31,376 nt of DNA from a virus. Each line of letters opens with the position of its first letter. Positions within the stretch are counted from its first letter, which is position 1. A program made the translations under genes and the position numbers. Below are positions 5,413-31,376 of this stretch, one piece after another. Location: the UHGV virus genome UHGV-0241516; one strand, given 5' to 3'. The notes under the pieces are model-generated. The model had not been told where the DNA came from, did not search any database, and saw only the letters and a list, made by a program, of their open reading frames with translations.

Positions 5413-6779
5413 TGCACTGGCACCTTCAGAGGGATCACCGGCACAAAGCCGGGATGCGTAATGGCATTACGCCGGATAATGTCCGCGTCACGCGCCGCGT
5501 TATCAAACCAGGTCGCCGCCAGCACCAGCGCGGGTAAAACCTCATCCGGCGTGCGCTGAATGATCCGTGCAGACTGTTCAAGGCGCGTGTTGATATCCGC
5601 ATTCAGATCTGCTTTCACCCGGCGCAGCGCCAGAAACAGCGCATCACTGGTTGTACGGGACAACTCCTTATCAATTGCCGTATTCAGTGTGTCGCGAATG
5701 TCAGTCAGTTCTTCCCACGTCGGCAGGTCAACTGTGTTTTTCACCGCCGGTGCATTGTTCAGTGCCGGATGCGTGACGGAAGGCCAGCCAGTGCTCTGCG
5801 CAGGTGTTGTTGCCTGCCCCACTGCGGCATTCTGCATCACCGCGGAAGTTGTTGGCGTAGGCAATCGGGTGACGGCATACGCCGCTTCGCTGATTGCGGT
5901 CGTACGAAGGGTGCTGGCAACCACGTTACGCTGCTGCGTAGCCGTGGCGGTGGTTTTACTGTCCGTTTTCCAGACGCCGCGCGGTTGCAGATCGCTGCCG
6001 AGGCTGACACCGGAAAGCGTTTTGATCATGGTGACCAGGTCGCTGGCGTTACCATAAAGGCGTTTCCCGGTACGCCACATTTTCTGCACCTGCTCAACGA
6101 AATTTTTGCCTGACGATGGCGGCGGCAGAAGTACCGAGATATCCCCCTGCAACAGCCTGGCGGCATCCGATACGGCAGAATCCACCACTTTCATCGCATC
6201 AGAAACATACCCAAGCATTGTGCTGGCATTACCGACGACGTCGTTCTGCACAAAATCTGCCACGCCATCGATACTGAAACTACTGAAACTGTCACTGATG
6301 CAGTCATCCAGTGCAGAACAGGATGACATCAGCGTCTGCGCCGTCGCCGCACCTGATGTGGGGTAAGAGAGTTCTCCCGCTTCGACAAACTTCAGGTCAA
6401 AGCGGACAATACGCCCTTCACTCTTCGATGTGCTGACCCGAACCTCTCCGTCAACACAGACTTTCAGCTCACCGTAAGTCGGATGGACAAGCGTGCCGGG
6501 ACCGGGTTTATTCAGCGCGTCAATCAGGCGATCGCGCTGGTCAAAGCAGTCATCTCCCACCACATAAGCCGTGATGGACGGGCGGAAAGTGATTTTCCCC
6601 AGGTCTTCGGTATAGGGTTTGTCGCGGTTCGGGTATTCGTGCGTTTCCACACGACGACCGGTTCCCGCACTTTCTTCTTCAACCTTAAACGGCACACCGC
6701 GAAATGACGCGTCCTGAAGTCTGTCTTTCCACGTCATATAAACTCCGTACATAAAAAATCCCACCGGAGTGGGACTCAT
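5409..6779 (-). CDS. Mu N-like DNA circulation protein
   Basis: 456 aa. N-terminal MTWKDRLQDASFRGVPFKVEEE…HEYPNRDKPYTEDLG matches the DNA-circulation N-terminal domain as recalled. Directly downstream of the tape measure. Confidence 0.75.
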   Translation of the reverse strand: MSPTPVGFFMYGVYMTWKDRLQDASFRGVPFKVEEESAGTGRRVETHEYPNRDKPYTEDLGKITFRPSITAYVVGDDCFDQRDRLIDALNKPGPGTLVHPTYGELKVCVDGEVRVSTSKSEGRIVRFDLKFVEAGELSYPTSGAATAQTLMSSCSALDDCISDSFSSFSIDGVADFVQNDVVGNASTMLGYVSDAMKVVDSAVSDAARLLQGDISVLLPPPSSGKNFVEQVQKMWRTGKRLYGNASDLVTMIKTLSGVSLGSDLQPRGVWKTDSKTTATATQQRNVVASTLRTTAISEAAYAVTRLPTPTTSAVMQNAAVGQATTPAQSTGWPSVTHPALNNAPAVKNTVDLPTWEELTDIRDTLNTAIDKELSRTTSDALFLALRRVKADLNADINTRLEQSARIIQRTPDEVLPALVLAATWFDNAARDADIIRRNAITHPGFVPVIPLKVPVQ

Positions 6780-21342: not shown

Positions 21343-21418
21343 TTCGTCATCTCTCACCTCGCGATATTTGCGGGTGCTGTGTTGGAAATAAAAAGGCCAC
21401 GCAACGTGGCCACCAGAA

Positions 21419-22471
21419 TTATTTCCCCACCAGTTCACTTACCTCTTTCACCGTCTGATTAAACCGCTCTGACTCAAGTTCAACACCTAACGCCCGACGC
21501 CCCAGCGCCATTGCCGCTTTTATTGTGGAACCGGATCCCATAAAGAAATCAGCAACCAGATCGCCTTGTCGACTACTGGCACTGATTATTTGCCGGAGCA
21601 TATCCGCAGGCTTCTCACACGGATGTTTACCCGGGTAGAACTGAACGGGTTTATGCGTCCAGACGTCGGTATAAGGCACGGAAACTGATACGGAGAAATA
21701 GCGCCGGAGAGTTTTAAACTCATCCAGCAATTCATAATATTTGCGATTCAGTGAATCATAAGATGCCACCAGCTGGTGGTGTGGTTGTTCCAGTTGTTGT
21801 TCCTGAAACTTCTCTGCCGCTATACGGGAAAACAGTGCCTGCAACTTCCGGTAGTCAGCCTCATTCGGCAACTGCCACTGACTGGCACCAAACCAGTGGG
21901 AAACCATATTTTTCTTACCAGTGGCTTCGGCAATCTGTTTTGCCGTTATACCCAGTTCGGCACGAGCATCCCTGAAATACGATATCAGCGGTGCCATTAT
22001 GTGCTGTTTGAGTTCCCTTTCTTTTGCCGCATAGCCGTCACTTTTGCCGCGATATGGCCCCTGGTAATGTTCAGCAAACAGAACGCGCTCTGTGGCAGGA
22101 AAATATGCGCGCAGACTTTCTTTATTACACCCATTCCAACGTCCGGACGGCTTCGCCCAGATGATATGGTTAAGCACGTTGAAACGTTCACGCATCATGA
22201 TCTCAATATCAGATGCCAGGCGATGCCCACAGAACAGGTAAAGGCTTCCGGCAGGTTTCAACACCCGCCAGAACTGGGCCAGACAGTGGTCCAGCCACTT
22301 AAGGTAATCTTCGTCCCCTTTCCACTGATTGTCCCAGCCGTTGGGTTTCACCTTGAAGTAAGGCGGATCGGTAACAATCAGGTCAATGGAATCATCAGGC
22401 AGGGACTGAATAAAATGCAGGCAATCAGCGTTGATTAAATCAACACTGTTTATTTTTACAGTATTTTTCAT
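21419..22471 (-). CDS. DNA methyltransferase, beta-class (N6A or N4C), orphan
   Basis: 350 aa. DPPY (motif IV) near the N-terminus and FFMGSGST (motif I) near the C-terminus. No restriction partner seen. Confidence 0.8.
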   Translation of the reverse strand: MKNTVKINSVDLINADCLHFIQSLPDDSIDLIVTDPPYFKVKPNGWDNQWKGDEDYLKWLDHCLAQFWRVLKPAGSLYLFCGHRLASDIEIMMRERFNVLNHIIWAKPSGRWNGCNKESLRAYFPATERVLFAEHYQGPYRGKSDGYAAKERELKQHIMAPLISYFRDARAELGITAKQIAEATGKKNMVSHWFGASQWQLPNEADYRKLQALFSRIAAEKFQEQQLEQPHHQLVASYDSLNRKYYELLDEFKTLRRYFSVSVSVPYTDVWTHKPVQFYPGKHPCEKPADMLRQIISASSRQGDLVADFFMGSGSTIKAAMALGRRALGVELESERFNQTVKEVSELVGK

Positions 22472-22621
22472 GGATCAGTAAGCGTAACTCTGGTAGGCTC
22501 ACTCTGCTTTTGCGCTAAAGCAGTGGGCCGTGGTTCGCTTGTGACCAGTAGGCATGAGCGAATGGCTGGCAGGTGCTACCAACACCCACCAGCCGCCCAT
22601 TTTCACAGCAGGAAACCGCCA

Positions 22622-22849
22622 TTACTGGCAGCGTCTGAATTTATTCCCGTACCCGCCGTTATCCTTCGCCAGACCCGCCAGAACTAACTGAGTCAGTATT
22701 AACTGGCACCGGGCTTCGCTTACTCCGGTAGTTCTCGTCATCATGCGTGGCGTTACCCACTTGTCAGCAGGTAAGAAATGAAGGACTGCGGCGGCGGTTT
22801 CTGTCATATCTTGCTGTTTTAGCATGTCTTTTTCCCTTCTGGTTAACAT
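22622..22849 (-). CDS. Small hypothetical protein (75 aa), possible winged-helix
   Basis: ATG at 22849-22847 with weak RBS. Function unknown; could be spurious. Confidence 0.4.
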   Translation of the reverse strand: MLTRREKDMLKQQDMTETAAAVLHFLPADKWVTPRMMTRTTGVSEARCQLILTQLVLAGLAKDNGGYGNKFRRCQ

Positions 22850-22946
22850 GACATACCAATAACTCTTGTCTAAAAAGCCAGCAAGATAAAAAGTCAGTAT
22901 TCACGACCACCAGCGTGTTTACTGTGCTGCACCAAGTTTACAGGTA

Positions 22947-22972
22947 CAAAAAAACCGCTCAGCGGCGGGTTT
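22947..22972 (-). terminator. Terminator-like hairpin with T7 tract on the minus strand
   Basis: Minus strand reads AAACCCGCCGCTGAGCGG followed by TTTTTTT (plus A-run 22948-22954). Stem is short. Could be tR'-like. Confidence 0.35.
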
Positions 22973-23144
22973 AAGTTGTGTGGCGAAGTAACCACTCTTA
23001 ACACAGTAATCTAGAAAATGCGGACCGCGTTAGTGATTTTTATCTGTTTTTCCATTATTTTTTTGCCACACAGCTTAAAACGAAAAATAAAGCAGGCGTT
23101 GCCAAACCTCACGGTGACAGTTGGCTTAGAATGAGGACATATTT

Positions 23145-24164
23145 TTGGATAAGTTTGATGAGATTCATGTAGACATTGAATCTGAGCAGCAAGCCTTCGA
23201 TTTGCTTGAAAGCTATCTTGATGGTTATGGTTTACCTGACAGTTTAAGTTTCAACGGATGGCCAAACCTTACCATCAGATTAACCGGTGAAAAATTCAAC
23301 AGATCGCTAACACCTTCAGTTATGAAGGGATTTGTTGAAATGCAAGCTCAAATCAACAAATCATATGCCCTTGCCAAGTACGGTGTCCCTGACGTCCGCA
23401 AACTGACCAAAGAAGAACTTGATGCCCTAGAAATAGAAGTTACGGTAGAACAGGGTTCTTCAATAGTAGAAATCAACATTGATGGCTTTTTAACCAAACT
23501 CACACAGGAACTTGTTGGTAAAATGAACGCAACTGAGATCATGTTTACTGTTCTCGGCGCAGCAGTCATCTGGGGCGGAGTAACAGTATTTAAACGGTTC
23601 TTGGACAACCGTAAAGATATTCGCCTTGCAGAAATTGCTAAGGATGGAGAGAAAGAACATCTCCGGACTATGCAGATCATGAGCGAGCAAGAAACTAAAC
23701 GCCTGCGGGTTATTTCAGAAATGATTGCGGAAAAACCACTTCTCGATAACATGGACCGTATGTCGTATGACGCTAAAACCCAAATGGTCAAATCCTTTGT
23801 GCGTTCAGATAACGCTCAAATTGATGGCGTTACTATTGATTCTGAAATGGCGAAAGAGTTGGTTACGAATGCTCGTAGACGTTCATCAGAAATGAGGATT
23901 GATGGTATTTACCGAATTGAAGAAGTCAATAATACTGACCCAGAGAGTTTCAAAGTTAAGGTCCGACGCGTAGATACCGACCAACGTCTAACCTGCGTAG
24001 TTCAGGATGTTTTCCTTGATGAATCCGGAAACAAAGAAGCATTGCAGCGAGCTGAGTGGGAAAGAAAGCCTGTACATTTGAGCATTAACGCAAAACACGT
24101 CGATGGTGACATTAAGTCAGCAGTAATTCTCTATGTTCGAGATGTGGAACAAAAGCCCGAGTAA
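23145..24164 (+). CDS. Moron: 339-aa protein of unknown function with a central predicted TM helix, opposite strand to the prophage
   Basis: TTG start at 23145 with GAGGA 7 nt upstream; no in-frame ATG upstream after the stop at 23127-23129. Hydrophobic IMFTVLGAAVIWGGVTVF mid-protein. Lower GC than flanks. Ends 14 bp from the convergent Q stop. Confidence 0.7.
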   Translation: MDKFDEIHVDIESEQQAFDLLESYLDGYGLPDSLSFNGWPNLTIRLTGEKFNRSLTPSVMKGFVEMQAQINKSYALAKYGVPDVRKLTKEELDALEIEVTVEQGSSIVEINIDGFLTKLTQELVGKMNATEIMFTVLGAAVIWGGVTVFKRFLDNRKDIRLAEIAKDGEKEHLRTMQIMSEQETKRLRVISEMIAEKPLLDNMDRMSYDAKTQMVKSFVRSDNAQIDGVTIDSEMAKELVTNARRRSSEMRIDGIYRIEEVNNTDPESFKVKVRRVDTDQRLTCVVQDVFLDESGNKEALQRAEWERKPVHLSINAKHVDGDIKSAVILYVRDVEQKPE

Positions 24165-24178
24165 TCGGGCTTCAATAA

Positions 24179-24556
24179 TCAATCTTTAATTTCGGGGTCC
24201 ATCTCTAGACTAATTTCCAGCATCGATAGGCAGCCATCAATAAACCCCTCAGCCATCTGTATCTCAATGCGTATTAGTTTCTCATCCTTTTTACGAGCCT
24301 TGGCGAGCTTTCTTTTAGAGATACCGTATAGGTAATGGGCAACAAGAAGCGAATGTTCGTCCGGCCTTTTTTGCCTTAGACGAGCAAGACAACCTTCAAT
24401 AATTAATGCATCACTATCTGAACATGCCTGACGTGTTTTGCTTGTATAGGGAAGAAGCCCTTTAAACCCAGCAGCTATAGGAGAATAGTCTACTCCTGAA
24501 CTATCACTCGCCGCCCATGCTCCCCAACGATCCAGAACCATTTGAATATCACGCAT
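24179..24556 (-). CDS. Late-gene antiterminator Q (QuuD-like)
   Basis: Preferred ATG at 24556 with GGAGA 6 nt upstream. MRDIQMVLDRWGAWAA…IAAGFKGL… matches the QuuD-like Q N-terminus as recalled. Upstream of the lysis cassette. Confidence 0.7.
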   Translation of the reverse strand: MRDIQMVLDRWGAWAASDSSGVDYSPIAAGFKGLLPYTSKTRQACSDSDALIIEGCLARLRQKRPDEHSLLVAHYLYGISKRKLAKARKKDEKLIRIEIQMAEGFIDGCLSMLEISLEMDPEIKD

Positions 24557-24573
24557 CAACTTTCTCCACAAAA

Positions 24574-25569
24574 TCAGGCCAGCACGCCAATTGCCAGCGC
24601 ACGATCGATAAAACGAAATATCAGCTCCAACTGAGAGCCATACTTTTCTTCAAATACCACGGTATCCGCATGCAGCTCGTCGTGATGCTTTCTGCACAAA
24701 GGCAGCACGAAGAGGTCATGCGCTTTTGTACCCATTCCACCCTGACCGTGGCCTATCAGGTGGTGGGGATCATCTGCAGGCTTTCCACAACATGCACACG
24801 GCTGCGTCTTAACCCAGCGCGTGTACTTTTCGTTAACCCAGCGGCGACGTTTGGGACGTAACATAAAAGACTCCGGCGACTCCGGATCCACTTTCAGCGC
24901 CAGCACCTTTTTCGCTTTATCCTGGATGATGCTGGTGGCAGGAACCGAAGGCACAAGGTCACTTTCCCGGGTGACAGACGGCACAACAGGCTTCGGTAAT
25001 CTCAGTGCCTTACGGGCTGCGCTTTCCGGTAAGGCATCCGCCAGGTCATTACGAACCAGCCACCAGCACAGTTCCGGCATTGTCACAACGTGACTGTCAT
25101 CAAAACCGAGATCCCGACGCACGACAGACAACACCCAGCGGGCACAGTTATCCGTTGCCATTGATTCCAGCCGTTCCGTGAATTGATCGCGCAGCTGGTT
25201 ATCGCAGTGCCAGCACAGACGGATTGCGCCCGGAGCATGTCGCATTGTGGTCATGTTCTCGCTGTGCCAGCCGGAATGAGGCCACTGACAGCCTTTTTCA
25301 CGAAGTAACCAGCTTTCAAGACATTCCACGCCACCAGCACGACGGATCACTGCCTCATTACGGAACACGGCCCGAACGGCAGGATCATCCGCCAGTGGTT
25401 GTGATGCCGCCGGAACGGCACCACTGGCAAAAGATGAATAACGTTCCGGCTCAGGCTCCAGCAGGACACGCCCCTGCATAAACAGGGGCATCAGCTCTGA
25501 ACCAGGCCTGAATAATACGATCCCCATACGCGGGGCAATTTCAGGGGTCAGTAGTGCTCTCACGGTCAC
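24574..25569 (-). CDS. DUF968-like protein with C-terminal HNH-type motif
   Basis: 331 aa. C-terminus CACCGKP…HHLIGHGQGG…CRKHHDELH is HNH/zinc-finger-like. GTG start is uncertain. Confidence 0.6.
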   Translation of the reverse strand: MTVRALLTPEIAPRMGIVLFRPGSELMPLFMQGRVLLEPEPERYSSFASGAVPAASQPLADDPAVRAVFRNEAVIRRAGGVECLESWLLREKGCQWPHSGWHSENMTTMRHAPGAIRLCWHCDNQLRDQFTERLESMATDNCARWVLSVVRRDLGFDDSHVVTMPELCWWLVRNDLADALPESAARKALRLPKPVVPSVTRESDLVPSVPATSIIQDKAKKVLALKVDPESPESFMLRPKRRRWVNEKYTRWVKTQPCACCGKPADDPHHLIGHGQGGMGTKAHDLFVLPLCRKHHDELHADTVVFEEKYGSQLELIFRFIDRALAIGVLA

Positions 25570-25570
25570 C

Positions 25571-26368
25571 TCAATGAACGGTATCGAGCAGCTTTAACAG
25601 CTCAGGGAATCGGGATTCGAAGAAATGCGGCTGCGTCTCGCGCGGATTTGCAGGACTGGTAATGTTCTTGCCGAACATGCAGCCTTTCGCCGTCAGCGAC
25701 CAGAATTTTTTGATGTTGTTAATCGCGGTACGGCTGTATCGTTCGCGTTGTTCAACGATCCCCAGCTTCGCCATCTGGTGATATGCCTGATTAGCTGTCA
25801 GGCGGATACCATACTGCCTCAGCAGTGCACTCAGTGACAGCGTGGGGCGGCTTGAGCCATCAGGCGCGTCAGCAGGAGCATCAATGGCATAGCGCGGTGC
25901 CAGATTCGGTAAGCCAACAGCCTCCTGGAGTTTCTGACAGGCACCAAGCACTGAAGAGTTAGACAGGTTTAATTCCCGGCGCATAAAGTCCAGCAGAATC
26001 ACACCAGCCTGCATCTTGTCAGCAGCCTGTCCGGATAATTTTTCCGGTGCGCTGGTTACCATGTCGAAAGTACGGATCACCTTCAGATGGAATGACGGGC
26101 TGATCCACATTGCATAGGCATACACCAGTTCTTTGCAGACATACGTCCCCTGGTTATTTCCGCCACGAATAACGTTAACTGGCTCTATATTGACCGAGTT
26201 GCAAATCTGCAACTCGCTTATTAAACGTTCAGTTTGCTCATTGCGGAGCCAGAATGCAGGCTTATGCTTATCCAGAGAACCGGCAGCCCTGTGCAGATCG
26301 TTCAGGCTGTAACGTCCATAAGCATCACGACGAACTTCAATACCATCAATGACCATCAGATTATTCAT
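25571..26368 (-). CDS. KilA-N domain protein
   Basis: Preferred ATG at 26368 with GAGGAG 9 nt upstream. N-terminal MNNLMVIDGIEVRRDAYGRYSLNDLHRAAG… is KilA-N-like. Confidence 0.7.
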   Translation of the reverse strand: MNNLMVIDGIEVRRDAYGRYSLNDLHRAAGSLDKHKPAFWLRNEQTERLISELQICNSVNIEPVNVIRGGNNQGTYVCKELVYAYAMWISPSFHLKVIRTFDMVTSAPEKLSGQAADKMQAGVILLDFMRRELNLSNSSVLGACQKLQEAVGLPNLAPRYAIDAPADAPDGSSRPTLSLSALLRQYGIRLTANQAYHQMAKLGIVEQRERYSRTAINNIKKFWSLTAKGCMFGKNITSPANPRETQPHFFESRFPELLKLLDTVH

Positions 26369-26387
26369 ACTTCGTTTCTCCTCTTGA

Positions 26388-26777
26388 TCAGGCGGCTGCA
26401 CCCGCCGTTTTCTCGTACTTACTGATAGTGATCTCGACCTTCCCTTCCGGGATAACCGGTCCCCACTCCACCAGCATTCTTTTCACCTGGCTGTCGTCTT
26501 CCCACACACCCGCGTGGGTCAGGGCGTCAAACAGTGCCTTGTTATAGTTGTCCAGATCGCGGATCCGGTTATCCGGAGGAAACAACACGATCTCCACTGA
26601 AGCAGGTGCCGACGTTGGTTTTGGCAGACGACGTAACTGCTCAACTATTGCTGCACACGCCGCGCTCTGAAATTTTCGCCCCGCCGCGCTTATCAGGCTC
26701 TTACCAGCAAATGCCCCTTTGTTGGGGTGTCGCCAGTACGTGTTCACGCTGGGCGGGAAAGGAAGGATCAACTTCAT
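26388..26777 (-). CDS. rusA: RusA Holliday-junction resolvase
   Basis: 129 aa with RusA-like motifs (…PPSVNTYWRH…RDLDNYNKALFDALTHAGVWEDDSQV…). ATGA overlap with the upstream gene. Confidence 0.85.
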   Translation of the reverse strand: MKLILPFPPSVNTYWRHPNKGAFAGKSLISAAGRKFQSAACAAIVEQLRRLPKPTSAPASVEIVLFPPDNRIRDLDNYNKALFDALTHAGVWEDDSQVKRMLVEWGPVIPEGKVEITISKYEKTAGAAA

Positions 26778-27100
26778 ACTTTCAGGCCCCTCTCATGTAA
26801 CCAGTGGGCTGCACGCAGCCTGGCGTTTTCCTCACCGGCAAGCAGTGAGCGGATAATCCCGACCGCCTCGCTGTCGTCGTCCTTCACCGCGGTATGAAGC
26901 GTGATGCCCCGGGCCACGCCACGCTTTATCGTGATGACGCCTTTTTTCTCCAGTGCGCGAAGATGCTCCACCGCTGCATTCACTGAACGGTATCCCAGCA
27001 TGGTTGCCACCTCCTGATTGGTTGGCGGGAAGCCACGTTCTTTCTGATAAGAAATCAGCATATCCAGCACCTGCTGCTGGCATTGAGTTAACGTCGTCAT
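26774..27100 (-). CDS. LexA N-terminal DNA-binding-domain-like protein, no peptidase domain
   Basis: 108 aa. Residues ~6-65 parallel the LexA wHTH (TxxQQxVLDxI…GxPPTxxEVAxxLGYRSxNAAxEHLxALxKKGVIxI). Ends long before any S24 domain could fit. Confidence 0.6.
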   Translation of the reverse strand: MTTLTQCQQQVLDMLISYQKERGFPPTNQEVATMLGYRSVNAAVEHLRALEKKGVITIKRGVARGITLHTAVKDDDSEAVGIIRSLLAGEENARLRAAHWLHERGLKV

Positions 27101-27750
27101 GCCGCCATCTCCCTGACCAGTTTTTCTGCCTGCTGGCGAACCTGCGCCAGAAAGGCCTCACCACATGCCTCAAGTTCATCGCGCCCGATGTAGCTGATTG
27201 CCGGTCCCTTCCAGGTCTTGTCGAAAACAGCAATAGCACCAGCGAAGAAAGCGCCTGTCGGCACCTGCTTCTCATCCTTCGGGATAAACCAGGCAGGCAG
27301 TTCAAAACCAATACGCCCGCGAATAAAAGCAATATGATCTGCATCTTCCGGCCACCACACTTCGCTGGTGGCAGCTTTGATCAGGAAAACATAGCGCCCG
27401 CCTTTATCACGCATGGCACTGGCATGCTTCATGATGTAACGCATGCCGGTGATGTATTGCCCCTCATGCTGACTGGCGCGGCTGTATGGGGGATTACCAA
27501 AGGCAGCACCTTTAAGCTCCGCAAGGCGTTCTGACCAGTCATGCGCCAGCGCGTTGTCTTCCGCCGTGTAATACGCAGCACATTTGGCGTTATCACCGTC
27601 AGTGAACAGATCCAGAACAAACGGGCCAAACAGGGTGTTAATTCCCCAGAAAATGTTGTCCGGCGTGCGCCACTGATCGCCCACTTCCTTCAGTTCATGG
27701 GCTGGTTTGTTCCGCAGTTCCGCCAGCGCCTGGCAATATTTATTACTCAT
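27097..27750 (-). CDS. Phage Dam-like N6-adenine methyltransferase
   Basis: ATG at 27750 overlaps the upstream stop (TAATG). NPPY motif (GNPPYSRA). Confidence 0.8.
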   Translation of the reverse strand: MSNKYCQALAELRNKPAHELKEVGDQWRTPDNIFWGINTLFGPFVLDLFTDGDNAKCAAYYTAEDNALAHDWSERLAELKGAAFGNPPYSRASQHEGQYITGMRYIMKHASAMRDKGGRYVFLIKAATSEVWWPEDADHIAFIRGRIGFELPAWFIPKDEKQVPTGAFFAGAIAVFDKTWKGPAISYIGRDELEACGEAFLAQVRQQAEKLVREMAA

Positions 27751-28238
27751 TAAGCCCCCACGTAATTCCCTGAGAGATACCACTCTTCACCTGATGCAGC
27801 CTGCTTACTGCTTTTCCGTAAACACCGTTCACGACGCGCCAGAAAATTGTTTCGTTCTGGCTGGGAGTGGCTTTCACGGAATGCCGCCATCCACACGGTT
27901 GCAGCACGACGGTATAAGCCCCTGGACTCCAGTTCTTCAGCCTGGCGGGTCAGGCACAAAATCACCTGGGGATCGTTAGTGCCGACATAGAAATTGCGCA
28001 CAGGTCTGGTTTCTCGAACTGGTTGTGGTTCCGGTTCCTGCGCTCTCTCAGTCAGGCGCGGGAAATGTCTGCGTGTATCTCCTTCACAACGGTGAGCCAC
28101 ACGCCCACTCTGACGTAACTTGCTTGCTGACTGCAGAACGCGCTGCCGTGAGTAACCTGCAAAAGCATCCGCAATGTCTCCGGAAGTACATCCCGGATGG
28201 GCTTCAATGAATTTCTGAACTTCATTCAAAAGACTCAT
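27750..28238 (-). CDS. PerC-family-like transcriptional regulator with N-terminal wHTH-like region
   Basis: Preferred ATG at 28238. Motif AEELESRGLYRRAATVWMAAF resembles the PerC core (LE..GLWRRAA..W) as recalled. Confidence 0.5.
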   Translation of the reverse strand: MSLLNEVQKFIEAHPGCTSGDIADAFAGYSRQRVLQSASKLRQSGRVAHRCEGDTRRHFPRLTERAQEPEPQPVRETRPVRNFYVGTNDPQVILCLTRQAEELESRGLYRRAATVWMAAFRESHSQPERNNFLARRERCLRKSSKQAASGEEWYLSGNYVGA

Positions 28239-28240
28239 GA

Positions 28241-29182
28241 TCACCCCCTGAATCCTGCCGGGATCTGGCTGTAGTCCACGTTGTCGTAACTGGATTTGAA
28301 GTACGGGTCTTCGCGTTTTTCGGTGTACGTGCTAACGGACGGTGATAAGCGCAGGGAAAGCTCATCCCATTTTTCCCGCAACTTCGACGGGCTGAGCACG
28401 TTACGGCACCAGAACGGATCGCGGCTGACGCGGCTGTACATCTCGCAGATTTGTTTGTGAGTACGACCATCCTGCACACACATCAGGCGAATTTCGTTTG
28501 CCCAGGCTGTCCAGTTCGGTTCTTTGGGACGAACCACCTCGCCGTCACATTCGGCGGCTTGCTCGTACAGGGCGATGATTTTTTTCCAGAGCCACTGTGC
28601 GCAGGTCAAATCATCCTGCGTTCCCCACTGGCGCTTTTTAGGGCTGAATACAACCGCATCAGGATGGCGAGTTAAAAAATCCTGTTCATCCGTCTGCGTG
28701 TCCGGTTGCGAAGCGTCCGGACGAGAAGGTTTTTTATCTGACGGATCATGTTTTGATTTTACTGACGGATCCCCGCCAGATTCTGACGGGTGAAAACCCG
28801 CTTTTTTGCCAGATTTCGACGCATCAAATTTTGACGGGTCAGATTTTGATGCGTCAGATTTTGACGGGTCAGAATCTGACAGTTGAGAAAATGCCGCTGC
28901 CTGAAGCTTCGCAACGTTAAGCTGATAAACATTCGACGCATTGCGGTTACCCTGGCGACGCGCCTTACGCGTTAACCAGCCTTCTGCTTCCAGCCGTGCG
29001 ATAGCCGTTCTGACGGTACTCATTCCCGCGCCAATCTGGCGGGCAATGGTTTCAATTGATGGCCAGCACACACCTTCGTCATTACTGAAATCAGCCAGGC
29101 GGGCCATAATTGCCACGCTGGATAATTTCATGCCTGATGCAGCGCAACCATCCCATACATAGCCGGTTAATTTAGTGCTCAT
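28241..29182 (-). CDS. Replication initiator, lambda O-like, with ori iterons inside the gene
   Basis: 313 aa. N-terminal HTH-like region, then a linker of repeated SDxSK pentapeptides encoded by the iteron array, then a C-terminal domain. ATG at 29182-29180. Confidence 0.7.
   Translation of the reverse strand: MSTKLTGYVWDGCAASGMKLSSVAIMARLADFSNDEGVCWPSIETIARQIGAGMSTVRTAIARLEAEGWLTRKARRQGNRNASNVYQLNVAKLQAAAFSQLSDSDPSKSDASKSDPSKFDASKSGKKAGFHPSESGGDPSVKSKHDPSDKKPSRPDASQPDTQTDEQDFLTRHPDAVVFSPKKRQWGTQDDLTCAQWLWKKIIALYEQAAECDGEVVRPKEPNWTAWANEIRLMCVQDGRTHKQICEMYSRVSRDPFWCRNVLSPSKLREKWDELSLRLSPSVSTYTEKREDPYFKSSYDNVDYSQIPAGFRG
28735..28885. repeat. Iteron array (putative ori): 4 tight 15-bp tandem repeats plus 3-4 degenerate copies
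   Basis: Read directly: 15-bp units at 28811-28870 (AGATTTCGACGCATC / AAATTTTGACGGGTC / AGATTTTGATGCGTC / AGATTTTGACGGGTC), degenerate copies at 28735-28792 and 28871-28885. Confidence 0.75.
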
Positions 29183-29191
29183 GACCGACCT

Positions 29192-29530
29192 CTATTTCCC
29201 TGAATTTACGACGAAACTGTTCGAGCGGGCTGAAGCACTCATGCTCATAACCTTCGCGGAGGTAGATAACCCGTTGTGTTTCCGGCTCCCAACGAATGAC
29301 TCTGACGGGCACTCCGTAGTGATCTTTGAACCAGCGGTTAACTTGTCGCAAAGGACTGTCTCCTTCTGCCGGTTGAAATCACCCACAGCCCACTCTGCAA
29401 AGCTGTGGGTTACAATTTCCCTGTCACCTGGTACATTTACTGCATAGCAATACTCCACCTTCGCTTTTCCACCCGGTACAGGAAGCGCAATCAGTTGCGA
29501 GCGACGGTAGTGTGTTGTTAAACTGTTCAT
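29192..29530 (-). CDS. Hypothetical protein (112 aa) coupled between CII-like and O-like genes
   Basis: ATG at 29530-29528 overlaps the upstream stop (ATGA). Ends 10 nt before the O-like start. No recognisable motif. Confidence 0.5.
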
Positions 29531-30090
29531 GCGTTAGTTTCTCCACAGTCACGACACGCCACGGCGCCCGGAGCTGCACACTCGCGGGCGTCATTACTTT
29601 CTGAAATGCAAAAAATTTTGTAGACCAGTGCTGCATGCTCCTGCAGCTTCGAAATTGAGAGGTACAGCTCGTCGTTAATTGCTGTCTTCTCATGCGGTTC
29701 CACTACACCGTCTTCAATTGCTGAACGAATCTGTTTTGAATAACTGCCGATCTGTTCAATGACTTCCAGCAGGCGCTGGTTAATATCGGCGTTGTCCACA
29801 TCCTCGACGTCAGGAAGAGACACAAAGACGCCATTTGCAGACTGCGCCACAGCGTCAGCAATGAAGTGAGTTCCACCAGCACGTTGCAAAATCATTGCCC
29901 ATCCCAGCGGGAAAATCTGATCGCCATCGGCACGAAGGCGGTTAAATAATGCGTTCTCTGTTACATCCAGCCAGTCAGCTGCTTCAGCGTAACCACCCGG
30001 CAACTTTGCGATAGTTTTTCTGACAGCTTTCACGTACCACTCAGGCTGTTTTTCTACTTTCCAGTGATGCTTACCCACGGTTAGCCTCAT
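29527..30090 (-). CDS. Early regulatory protein, CII-like (CP76 family) or YdaT-like; uncertain
   Basis: 187 aa, immediately downstream of the Cro-like gene. Family tentative. Start could be ATG 30090 or GTG 12 nt in. Confidence 0.45.
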
Positions 30091-30121
30091 CGTTCTGTGG
30101 TTAAAAATTGAAAGTGTTCTG

Positions 30122-30322
30122 CTAATCTTTCGGATAGATATCCGGTCTTAAGTCAGATTTCGTAATTGCACCTGACGTGCATTGCTCAAGTTTTTTAGCC
30201 AGCACAAAACTGGCTTTTTTATAGCCATTGAAAACCAGCCGTAAGTAGCCAGGTGTTGAGCCAACTTTTCCGGCCAACTCGCCCTGCTGTTCTTTGGTTA
30301 AAGAGTCCCAATACGCTTTCAT
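30122..30322 (-). CDS. Cro-like HTH repressor
   Basis: 66 aa (MKAYWDSLTKEQQGELAGKVGSTPGYLRLVFNGYKKASFVLAKKLEQ…). ATG at 30322-30320 with GGAGG upstream. The ORF track's 167-aa frame is a spurious upstream extension. Confidence 0.75.
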   Translation of the reverse strand: MKAYWDSLTKEQQGELAGKVGSTPGYLRLVFNGYKKASFVLAKKLEQCTSGAITKSDLRPDIYPKD

Positions 30323-30412
30323 ACAATATGTACCTCCGGTGTACATATTACATGATTGAAATGAACCTTCAAGATACTTGTACCTTAACGGTACAAGGGT
30401 TTTAATTTCGTT
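30323..30412. promoter_or_regulatory. Immunity switch: two palindromic operators and candidate divergent promoters
   Basis: Palindromes AATATGTAC-N7-GTACATATT (30325-30349) and CTTGTACC-N5-GGTACAAG (30377-30397). Candidate PR-like promoter on minus: -35 at plus 30367-30372, 16-bp spacer, -10 at plus 30345-30350. Candidate PRM-like on plus: TTGTAC (30378-30383), 17 bp, TTTAAT (30401-30406). Confidence 0.6.
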
Positions 30413-31087
30413 ATGAAAACAATCCATGACATCCGGCGGTCTAACGCCAGAAAACTGAGAGATGGTGTTGGCGGGAATTCTTCCTTTGCCACTATGATTG
30501 ATCGCGAGCCAACCCAGACCAGCAGGTTTATGGGAGATGGTGCTACTAAAAATATCGGTGACAGCATGGCACGACACATCGAAAAATGTTTCGACCTGCC
30601 TGTCGGATGGCTCGATCAAGAACACCAGACAACGAACATCACAAAAAAACCTGATGTTTCAATCACTAATAAACAAATCACATTAGTCCCTGTCATATCA
30701 TGGGTACAGGCCGGAGCATGGAAAGAAGTTGGATATTCTGAGGTTGATTTGAGCACAGCAGAAACGTATCCCTGCCCTGTACCCTGTGGGGAAATGACTT
30801 ATATCTTGCGGGTGATAGGTGATTCAATGATTGATGAGTACCGCCCGGGAGACATGATTTTTGTCGATCCTGAAGTACCTGCCTGCCACGGTGACGACGT
30901 TATTGCATTGATGCACGATACAGGCGAAACCACCTTCAAAAGGTTGATAGAAGATGGGACACAGCGTTATCTCAAAGCGTTAAACCCAAACTGGCCTGAG
31001 CCTTACATTAAGATCAACGGTAATTGCTCTATAATTGGTACAGTGATTTTCTCAGGAAAACCAAGAAGATACAAAATCAAAGCCTAA
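30413..31087 (+). CDS. CI-like repressor (HTH + S24 LexA-like autocleavage domain)
   Basis: 224 aa. ATG at 30413, TAA at 31085-31087. C-terminal half has the S24 peptidase signature (…VIGDSMIDEYRPGDMIFVDP…). Confidence 0.85.
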   Translation: MKTIHDIRRSNARKLRDGVGGNSSFATMIDREPTQTSRFMGDGATKNIGDSMARHIEKCFDLPVGWLDQEHQTTNITKKPDVSITNKQITLVPVISWVQAGAWKEVGYSEVDLSTAETYPCPVPCGEMTYILRVIGDSMIDEYRPGDMIFVDPEVPACHGDDVIALMHDTGETTFKRLIEDGTQRYLKALNPNWPEPYIKINGNCSIIGTVIFSGKPRRYKIKA

Positions 31088-31099
31088 TCAATGTTTATG

Positions 31100-31122
31100 A
31101 ACCTGCTTCGGCAGGTTTTTTT
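31100..31122 (+). terminator. Rho-independent terminator after the repressor gene
   Basis: AACCTGC-ttcg-GCAGGTT then TTTTTTT, 13 nt after the CI stop. Confidence 0.8.
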
Positions 31123-31126
31123 ATAC

Positions 31127-31154
31127 TTGACAATGTACCTTTGAGATACATAAT
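31127..31154 (+). promoter_or_regulatory. Near-consensus sigma70 promoter (PL-like) with operator-like TGTACC motifs
   Basis: TTGACA (31127-31132), 16-bp spacer, CATAAT (31149-31154). TGTACC at 31134-31139 and 31154-31159, the same hexamer found in both operator palindromes. Confidence 0.6.
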
Positions 31155-31321
31155 GTACCCAAGCGAAACAACGAACAGGCAGGACGCCCACGAAGTAGCC
31201 GCCTGGGGCATATGAAGTCCAGGATGATTCGTTAGCAACAAAAAAGCGCCCTACAGGACGCTTAGCTCTTTAACAATCTGGTCCCCATCAACAAGTAACT
31301 GATAACTTGAGGAGGTGTGAA

Positions 31322-31376
31322 ATGCACAAAACAGAACCCAAAATCGTCGCGCCTGGCTACACAGATGAGGAAATTT
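31322..31376 (+). CDS. 5' end of a plus-strand early gene (runs off the window)
   Basis: ATG at 31322 with GAGGAGG 6 nt upstream; MHKTEPKIVAPGYTDEEI… Only 18 codons visible. Confidence 0.45.
   Translation, partial: MHKTEPKIVAPGYTDEEI

Follow-up and report, generated by a model that had tools for sequence, protein, structure and literature searches.

A stand-alone LexA DNA-binding-domain protein with a conserved helical tail, encoded in a nin-type region of a lambdoid phage genome

The gene, its product and its neighbors

The viral genome UHGV-0241516 (31,376 nucleotides (nt); "the window" hereafter means this whole stretch of DNA) encodes on its minus strand, at positions 26774..27100, a 108-amino acid (aa) protein that combines a LexA-type DNA-binding domain (DBD) with a short helical tail, and we refer to its gene as the LexA-DBD gene. 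The open reading frame (ORF) is matched by the Pfam profile PF01726 (LexA_DNA_bind; E = 2.9e-19) and by phrog_362 (E = 1.4e-59, over the full length of the protein), and it is identical to a RefSeq coding sequence of E. coli FORC_081, i.e., WP_000210164.1, "LexA family transcriptional regulator". The PF01726 match pairs residues 1-65 with all 65 profile positions (1-65) and scores 69 bits (cut-off, 23.7), and a phmmer search of the PDB returned the LexA DNA-binding domain 1lea (E = 7e-16; residues 2-69, without gaps). The equivalog model for full LexA, TIGR00498, scored 70.8 against its cut-off of 110.95 and was matched at model positions 1-91 of 203 only. The S24 peptidase/dimerization domain (Ser119/Lys156 of LexA) was not detected, as PF00717 gave no match in the Pfam search, and the protein stops at residue 108. 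PADLOC identified no defense system, the only hit being a weak match of the winged helix-turn-helix type (CARF3, E = 3.6e-4).

An AlphaFold (AF2) model of the protein, with a mean predicted local distance difference test score (pLDDT) of 80.8, has the topology of the LexA winged helix-turn-helix (wHTH), followed by a flexible linker and then by two helices. The wHTH head, delimited with AF2, Foldseek and HMMER, occupies codons 1-68 (26897..27100, minus strand), with helices at residues 6-22, 28-35 and 40-52 and wing strands at residues 56-58 and 66-68. Foldseek placed the model head on LexA of the LexA-DNA complex 3jso with a root-mean-square deviation (rmsd) of 1.0 Å over 66-67 residues (51-52% identity); for 1lea and 3jso together the rmsd ranged from 1.0 to 1.2 Å, with 51% identity to E. 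coli LexA. A preliminary description of this DNA, made from the sequence alone, had proposed a stand-alone homolog of LexA's DNA-binding domain that extends over approx. 60 residues and ends without the S24 domain, and the profile, phmmer and structural results agree with both parts of this proposal. Overall, the protein is a stand-alone LexA_DNA_bind phage protein of PHROG 362 (single PF01726 domain, 70-150 aa). Its relatives carry PF01726 alone, and its structural neighbors in BFVD include many phage proteins of 70-150 aa that share the head and are named "LexA repressor DNA-binding domain-containing protein". We also observed eight proteins of 140-350 aa (P0132, P0133, P0148, P0152, P0153, P0156, P0160 and P0164) with two LexA-DBD stretches per chain; the stretches are in tandem in at least some of these proteins, which could be single-chain pseudo-dimers.

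The LexA-DBD gene is flanked upstream by a gene for a Dam-family phage N-6-adenine methyltransferase (27097..27783, minus strand; PF05869, E = 1.2e-45; TIGR01712, 255 bits; start at 27750 in RefSeq) and downstream by the gene for a RusA Holliday-junction resolvase (26388..26777, minus strand; PF05866, E = 6e-15; phrog_34). Both junctions, as read from the sequence and the ORF ends, are 4-nt ATGA overlaps on the minus strand. In one, the Dam-like methyltransferase stop is shared with the LexA-DBD start (27097..27100), and in the other the LexA-DBD stop is shared with the rusA start (26774..26777); these overlaps suggest translational coupling with both neighbors. Along the minus strand, the genes are arranged as CII-like, DUF4222, replication (HTH_36), PerC-like, Dam, LexA-DBD, RusA, KilA-N, DUF968/HNH and Q. 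The location between the Dam-like methyltransferase and RusA genes that had been described was thereby recovered, as was the nin-like placement, i.e., between the replication gene and the gene for the Q antiterminator, and the region is a delayed-early region of the nin type. In every locus compared the LexA-DBD gene was part of the nin region and preceded Q. The protein had also been set apart from the cleavable CI repressor, and a CI-type repressor gene with a Peptidase_S24 domain was indeed found separately by domain search, at 30413-31087 on the plus strand.

Two other features of this part of the window were recorded. Repeated inverted repeats of the GTCAGATTTTGAC type, at 28818-28880 inside the HTH_36 replication gene, are probably origin iterons. 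A gene for a 339-aa protein (23145-24164, plus strand, i.e., the opposite strand; phrog_6191, function unknown) separates Q from the late region, a position typical of a moron, and gave no Pfam or PADLOC match.

The ATGA overlaps on both sides, of which the one with rusA is also found in phage mEp390 and in Citrobacter prophages, would fit a protein that is not a transcription factor at all and serves instead as a DNA-binding accessory of RusA or Dam, involved in tethering or targeting. We consider such a role improbable, as overlapping genes are the rule across nin regions whatever the function of the genes. Moreover, the dam gene is an optional part of the module (it is missing upstream of the LexA-DBD gene in SfIV, 2H10, mEp390 and the Citrobacter prophages), rusA of SfIV is frameshifted while the LexA-DBD gene of this phage is intact, and other neighbors are found in Klebsiella, Proteus and Edwardsiella phages.

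Recognition helix, tail and conservation

According to papers that summarize the LexA-operator crystal structure, from which the LexA contact residues used here were drawn, S39, N41, A42 and E45 of LexA are responsible for the direct readout of CTGT, with N41 and E45 as key base contacts and R28 as a backbone contact (PMC11442139; bioRxiv 2020.07.14.201889); an older summary lists E44 as an additional contact (PMC3091678). The recognition helix of the phage protein, as placed by the alignments and a family survey, is SVNAAVEHLRALEK (codons 39-52; 26945..26986, minus strand), as compared to SPNAAEEHLKALAR in LexA. In the aligned heads (RSVNAAVEHLRAL in the phage protein and RSPNAAEEHLKAL in LexA), the residues at positions 39, 41, 42 and 45 are identical. 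R64-G65 of the LexA wing is present as well, and R64-G65-I66 is unchanged throughout the family. The S-N-A-E combination is also kept in most distant stand-alone homologs (Cronobacter, Kosakonia, Enterobacter, Cedecea and mEp390). The preliminary description had called for an alignment to LexA DNA-binding domains with attention to the recognition helix, so that a generic wHTH without conserved contact residues could be told apart; for the four CTGT-reading residues named in the summaries, a generic wHTH is not what we found. Given that these residues are retained along with the wing, the most likely activity of the protein is to bind operators that contain CTGT and resemble SOS boxes, and binding to SOS boxes proper is plausible from the alignments, with the caveat that operator spacing and affinity are not predictable for a protein from which the LexA dimerization domain is absent.

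In place of the S24 domain, the protein carries a two-helix hairpin (codons 74-103, with helices at 74-87 and 93-103; 26792..26881, minus strand), which was delimited from the AF2 model and from conservation among homologs. The block-mean pLDDT is approx. 85 for residues 81-100 of the hairpin, and the tail is conserved in homologs down to 41% identity (41-51% range); a Foldseek search of the PDB found no structural match for it. The HMMER and TIGR00498 alignments extend beyond the wHTH to residue 90-91 (EAVGIIRSLLAGE as compared to EGLPLVGRVAAGE in LexA), and the first tail helix is aligned with the linker and cleavage-site region of LexA (IIRSLLAGE and LVGRVAAGE, respectively), such that A88-G89 of the phage protein falls on the A84-G85 scissile bond. 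In the family survey, true LexA sequences align to the same family columns across this cleavage-site-like segment. The protein hence looks like the product of a lexA gene truncated just past the cleavage-site region, i.e., approximately LexA(1-84), to which about 18 new residues have been added. From the model, the tail is probably a new interaction module, and dimerization would be its function. Cleavage at A88-G89 appears unlikely, because the segment is helical in the model and the A-G dipeptide is gone from most distant homologs (MVERES, LLTRKE, MIDDQP and LVAELP); a catalytic domain is not present in cis.

The passage of the alignment through the cleavage-site region, with A-G matching LexA A84-G85, could also be taken to mean that the protein works as a decoy, in which the cleavage-site-like LLAGEE (VAAGEP in LexA) would fill the active site of LexA or CI, or would engage activated RecA (RecA*), and so modulate cleavage. 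This seems very improbable to us. The predicted helix is unlike the LexA cleavage loop, the loss of A-G among distant homologs is not what a decoy would lead one to expect, and both the DNA-reading residues and the wing are strongly conserved, which favors DNA binding.

Among 5426 complete E. coli genomes, 2233 (approx. 41%) carry the 327-bp gene, nearly all of them at ≥95% nucleotide identity, and a single genome may have up to four copies; the flanking genes are the same in the genomes listed, and the annotation in these genomes is always "LexA family transcriptional regulator". It also occurs in 50 phage records, including SfV, SfII, SfIV, mEp460, cdtI, 15 Stx2c phages, Stx2a_1447/WGPS2 and 1720a-02. 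SfV orf42 (labeled "unknown"), the mEp460 copy (labeled "LexA DNA binding domain protein"), PHROG 362 (labeled "transcriptional repressor") and WP_000210164.1 represent the same gene in the same module, with 97-100% protein identity. The gene had been presented as something unusual, and this part of the preliminary description does not stand, since the gene occurs very commonly and its annotation as LexA family exists already. Full-length homologs with the tail, at 41-66% identity, were found in Cronobacter, Kosakonia, Enterobacter, Cedecea, Klebsiella, Salmonella, Citrobacter and phage mEp390; where these are named, most are called LexA family and a few DNA-binding protein or Rrf2 family. A locus search aimed at distant family members returned near-identical copies only.

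Comparisons of coding sequences gave proportions of nonsynonymous (pN) and synonymous (pS) differences of 0.21 and 0.76 (saturated), respectively, against the Citrobacter ortholog and of 0.36 and 0.80 against the mEp390 homolog, and conservation is focused on the wHTH and on both tail helices, while the linker is variable. These data show that the LexA-DBD gene is under purifying selection. The truncated appearance might otherwise have been explained by decay, i.e., by a captured lexA gene of which a remnant without function is left. This explanation is effectively refuted by the conservation data, as the gene is intact in 2223 E. coli genomes, as its full length including the tail is conserved across genera of the Enterobacteriaceae at 41-66% identity, and as pN is only 0.2-0.36 at saturated synonymous sites.

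SOS boxes in the window and in related prophages

A search of the prophage for CTGT-N8-ACAG sites, as had been suggested in the preliminary description, identified exactly one strong LexA (SOS) box in the window, i.e., TACTGTAAAAATAAACAGTG as read on the minus strand (22444..22463), which is a perfect CTGT-N8-ACAG site and scores 23.5 bits. The position-specific scoring matrix (PSSM) used, for which 20 SOS boxes of E. coli were combined, recovered the dinB box of the flanking chromosome as a positive control. The next-best site in the window scored 11.3 bits, and the maximum among 30 shuffles was 16.0. Sites with one mismatch to CTGT-N8-ACAG were more numerous than expected (18 vs. 9.7), but apart from the perfect site all of them scored 11 bits or less; as these scores are inside the shuffle range, the sites were attributed to chance.

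The box is located in codons 4-9 of a late-region gene for a 350-aa N6/N4 DNA methyltransferase (21419..22471, minus strand), which follows a tR'-like terminator and a small ORF, precedes the lysis genes and has a terminator of its own downstream. CTGT-N8-(A/C)CAG is kept in 11 of 11 sequences (the window and ten diverged phages, Hafnia and Morganella phages included), while the protein sequence over the box varies among them (TVKINS, TVIINS, TVKISS, TVNMNS and TVNLNS). Third positions are invariant in only five of the first 50 codons of the gene; codons 4 and 8, whose third positions belong to the box core, are the only degenerate ones among these five, the other three being Met or Trp codons. 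A near-identical box region is found in 1086 of the 5426 complete E. coli genomes. By this pattern of conservation the box is a real operator under selection at the DNA level, and it is best read as an operator of host LexA that is also a candidate site for the phage LexA-DBD protein. An obligate pairing of the LexA-DBD gene with the methyltransferase box was considered and rejected, as at least six phages have the box without the gene and others have the gene without the methyltransferase (2H10, SfIV and mEp390 carry the LexA-DBD gene and lack the late methyltransferase gene).

Several observations were made on the surroundings of this box. LexA bound there could be a roadblock to late read-through or could control an unmapped promoter. 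A non-coding leader of approx. 140 nt (22472-22615, minus strand) separates a terminator-like hairpin from the methyltransferase ATG; it is very strongly conserved in diverged phages and folds at -58.3 kcal/mol (z = -2.9), and an alignment fold of approx. 200 nt that includes the upstream terminator-like hairpin shows compensatory changes in 8 of 44 predicted pairs. No Rfam family reached the gathering threshold in the whole window, including the leader at 22472-22615, and the sub-threshold Rfam matches in 22300-23300 were all upstream of the leader. Past the end of the methyltransferase gene and ahead of the holin gene, at approx. 21385-21412 (minus strand), we observed a hairpin (GGCCACgttgcGTGGCC, then TTTTTATTT) that resembles an intrinsic terminator; as the equivalent of 21385-21412 is annotated as a terminator in SfV, the methyltransferase gene appears to be bracketed by terminators on both sides.

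Operators of other kinds were looked for in the window as well. Alternative layouts of the half-sites, i.e., CTGT-Nx-ACAG and ACAG-Nx-CTGT with x = 0-20, occurred at chance level (approx. 0.5 expected for each). The inverted repeats found in 22300-31376 were CI/Cro operators, origin iterons and hairpins, with the methyltransferase box as the only LexA-like repeat, and the region from Q to the late genes contained no candidate for a palindrome of the late-promoter type except this same box.

Among 80 IMG/VR loci with the same LexA-DBD gene, 43 had at least one box of ≥16 bits within 10 kb, a count that refers to carriers of the gene alone. The exact methyltransferase box accounted for 21 of the 80 loci, at approx. 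+4.9 kb, and two further near variants were seen at a similar distance. In the same set, 24 loci, which have a different immunity region, carried a box of 26-27 bits (TACTGTATGTAAAAACAGTA or TACTGTATATAAAAACAGTA) 3-4 kb upstream of the LexA-DBD gene. In the three of these loci that were examined, the box is inside the cI coding sequence, in the linker between HTH and S24 (...KSNTVCKNS...), at 5546-5565 in L046, 7094-7113 in L086 and 3139-3158 in L028. The cI-linker box and the methyltransferase box share their reading frame (ACT GTx ... AAC AGT). One locus of the 80 resembles Shigella phage SfIV in that its box adjoins the KilA-N gene.

Boxes were also seen in two other phages. In SfIV itself (L021), a 24-bit box, TACTGTATTTATGAACAGTA, is located at 6640-6659, directly after the LexA-DBD gene and approx. 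100 nt upstream of KilA-N, which suggests that LexA controls a KilA-N or antirepressor-like gene in the SfIV variant. Edwardsiella phage EPP-1 (L016) has a 25-bit box at 2731-2750 upstream of a two-gene unit; the second gene of this unit encodes a 71-aa DBD-only LexA homolog without the tail and may itself be regulated by LexA.

Possible roles of the LexA-DBD protein

The phage protein shares with the N-terminal domain of E. coli LexA (1lea, 3jso) and with the LexA(1-84) autocleavage fragment the same wHTH, the reading residues and the wing, and its similarity to LexA runs through the linker to the A-G of the cleavage site. It differs from E. coli LexA in that the S24 protease/dimerization domain is replaced by the helical tail with its approx. 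18 new residues, in that the gene is phage-encoded and has no SOS box upstream, and in two substitutions of the head (E44 to V and R28 to N). Its closest studied relative is gp6 of GIL01, a tectivirus of Bacillus thuringiensis, which is a truncated LexA homolog with GaCACAnnTGTGaC as its binding site and acts as an activator of the late promoter P3 (PMC6182141). Like the protein studied here, gp6 is a phage-encoded, DBD-only LexA homolog; it is expressed early in the lytic program and shows that homologs of this kind can be functional DNA-binding regulators. On the other hand, gp6 belongs to a tectivirus of a Gram-positive host, is an activator of transcription and reads a non-SOS palindrome via K38; by its published description it is also shorter, consisting of approximately the wHTH alone without a helical tail. 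The phage protein, by comparison, keeps the reading residues of E. coli LexA and is encoded in a nin region of the lambdoid type, where Q is already present. A second GIL01 protein, gp7, is a LexA co-repressor that holds down a co-resident prophage (PMC9700832). It offers a possible functional analogy, in that LexA-controlled promoters are kept shut during SOS, but it has no LexA homology or other sequence relationship to the phage protein, and it binds host LexA rather than DNA.

We propose, at a probability of roughly 40%, that the LexA-DBD protein is a delayed-early, RecA-insensitive operator-binding protein of the LexA type, which stands in for cleaved host LexA as the surrogate repressor of CTGT-type operators. 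It would be a working transcription factor of the phage that stems from a truncated lexA gene and is composed of the LexA head, a short linker and the phage-specific two-helix tail. Its gene would be transcribed along with the other delayed-early (nin) genes that separate the replication genes from Q, such that the protein would be made in lytic growth, and its expression after SOS induction would coincide with a state in which host LexA is already cleaved. As the catalytic domain is missing, no autocleavage and an insensitivity to RecA* are expected. The protein would probably bind as a dimer that assembles via its helical tail or on DNA, and this surrogate, non-inducible LexA would re-occupy phage operators such as the methyltransferase box in the window and the KilA-N box in SfIV; host SOS promoters and the promoters of co-resident prophages are possible further targets. 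In this proposal we infer the DNA specificity, the oligomeric state, the repression and the expression timing of the protein. The role of a surrogate LexA is plausible because Kim and Little reportedly found in 1992 that operators are bound cooperatively by the N-terminal domain of LexA in isolation, and because LexA(1-84) is said to still repress, such that the cell must degrade it via ClpXP (reportedly Neher and colleagues, 2003).

A number of observations weigh against this proposal. The two substitutions in the head affect residues listed as LexA contacts, and position 44 is V, T, F, A, L or Y, but never E, in 10 of 10 stand-alone homologs with the tail, while E44 is present in most of the remaining matches of the family survey, i.e., those with recognition helices of the LexA type. 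The loss of E44 appears to be a signature of the family and may alter half-site preference or affinity as compared to LexA. The syntenic Citrobacter ortholog has the recognition helix RSVNTIAGHL (A42T, E45G), which suggests a drift in specificity as in phage-private regulators, such that specificity would not be frozen across the family. The methyltransferase box is present in phages without a homolog of the LexA-DBD protein (Flotzy, phiNP, LLS, phiP27, Stx2_EH2201 and Kp4866-6); conversely, 2H10 carries the gene and has no strong box in the 16 kb scanned, a stretch that comprises the early, nin and lysis regions. With the PSSM, nothing upstream of the LexA-DBD gene in 27100-30400 scored above 8 bits, and because the window has no SOS box upstream of the gene, the gene is not autoregulated in the manner of lexA; with neither this autoregulation nor the S24 domain, the protein is not a LexA repressor proper. 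Finally, our literature searches turned up no experimental study of the enterobacterial LexA-DBD protein.

Some of these observations would be expected if the head had been retuned to a non-SOS phage operator, at which the protein would activate or repress a phage promoter, be it a late one or, to shut down early transcription, an early one, in the manner of gp6, and leave the host SOS response untouched. For such a phage-private regulator, GIL01 gp6 with its binding site and its activation of P3 represents an exact precedent, and the systematic replacement of E44 in the stand-alone family, the divergent Citrobacter helix and the lack of a strong box in the 16 kb of 2H10 scanned all point in the same direction. 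Nevertheless, the four CTGT-reading residues, as named in the structural summaries, are unchanged, neither an alternative palindrome nor another CTGT arrangement (spacers of 0-20 nt) rises above chance in the window, late activation is already served by Q, and the module around the gene is so densely coding that it leaves no space for a private operator. We consider this main alternative possible, although on the unlikely side.

The surrogate-repressor proposal may also be given a broader form, in which a RecA-proof surrogate LexA re-imposes SOS-box repression, after prophage induction and the loss of host LexA, not only on LexA-gated genes of the phage but also on the host regulon (recA, sulA, umuDC) and on the LexA-controlled antirepressors of rival prophages. 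In this broader form we regard it as doubtful and rather unlikely.

Phage-encoded, DBD-only LexA homologs are a recognized class, in which GIL01 gp6 has been studied and many members have been annotated. The gene described here is itself already catalogued and is of the same kind as gp6, with the addition of a conserved tail and of a CTGT-reading head that has not been retuned. The family is very widespread, as it is found in E. coli genomes, in Shigella serotype-converting phages, in Stx2c phages and in some Stx2a phages. If the protein acts on a private operator instead, it would represent one more regulator of the nin region. If, on the other hand, it occupies SOS boxes and is immune to RecA*, a large share of E. 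coli strains would carry a phage-controlled brake on the SOS response, with effects on SOS output, on mutagenesis, on the induction hierarchy of prophages, on the competition between them and possibly on the yield of Shiga toxin.

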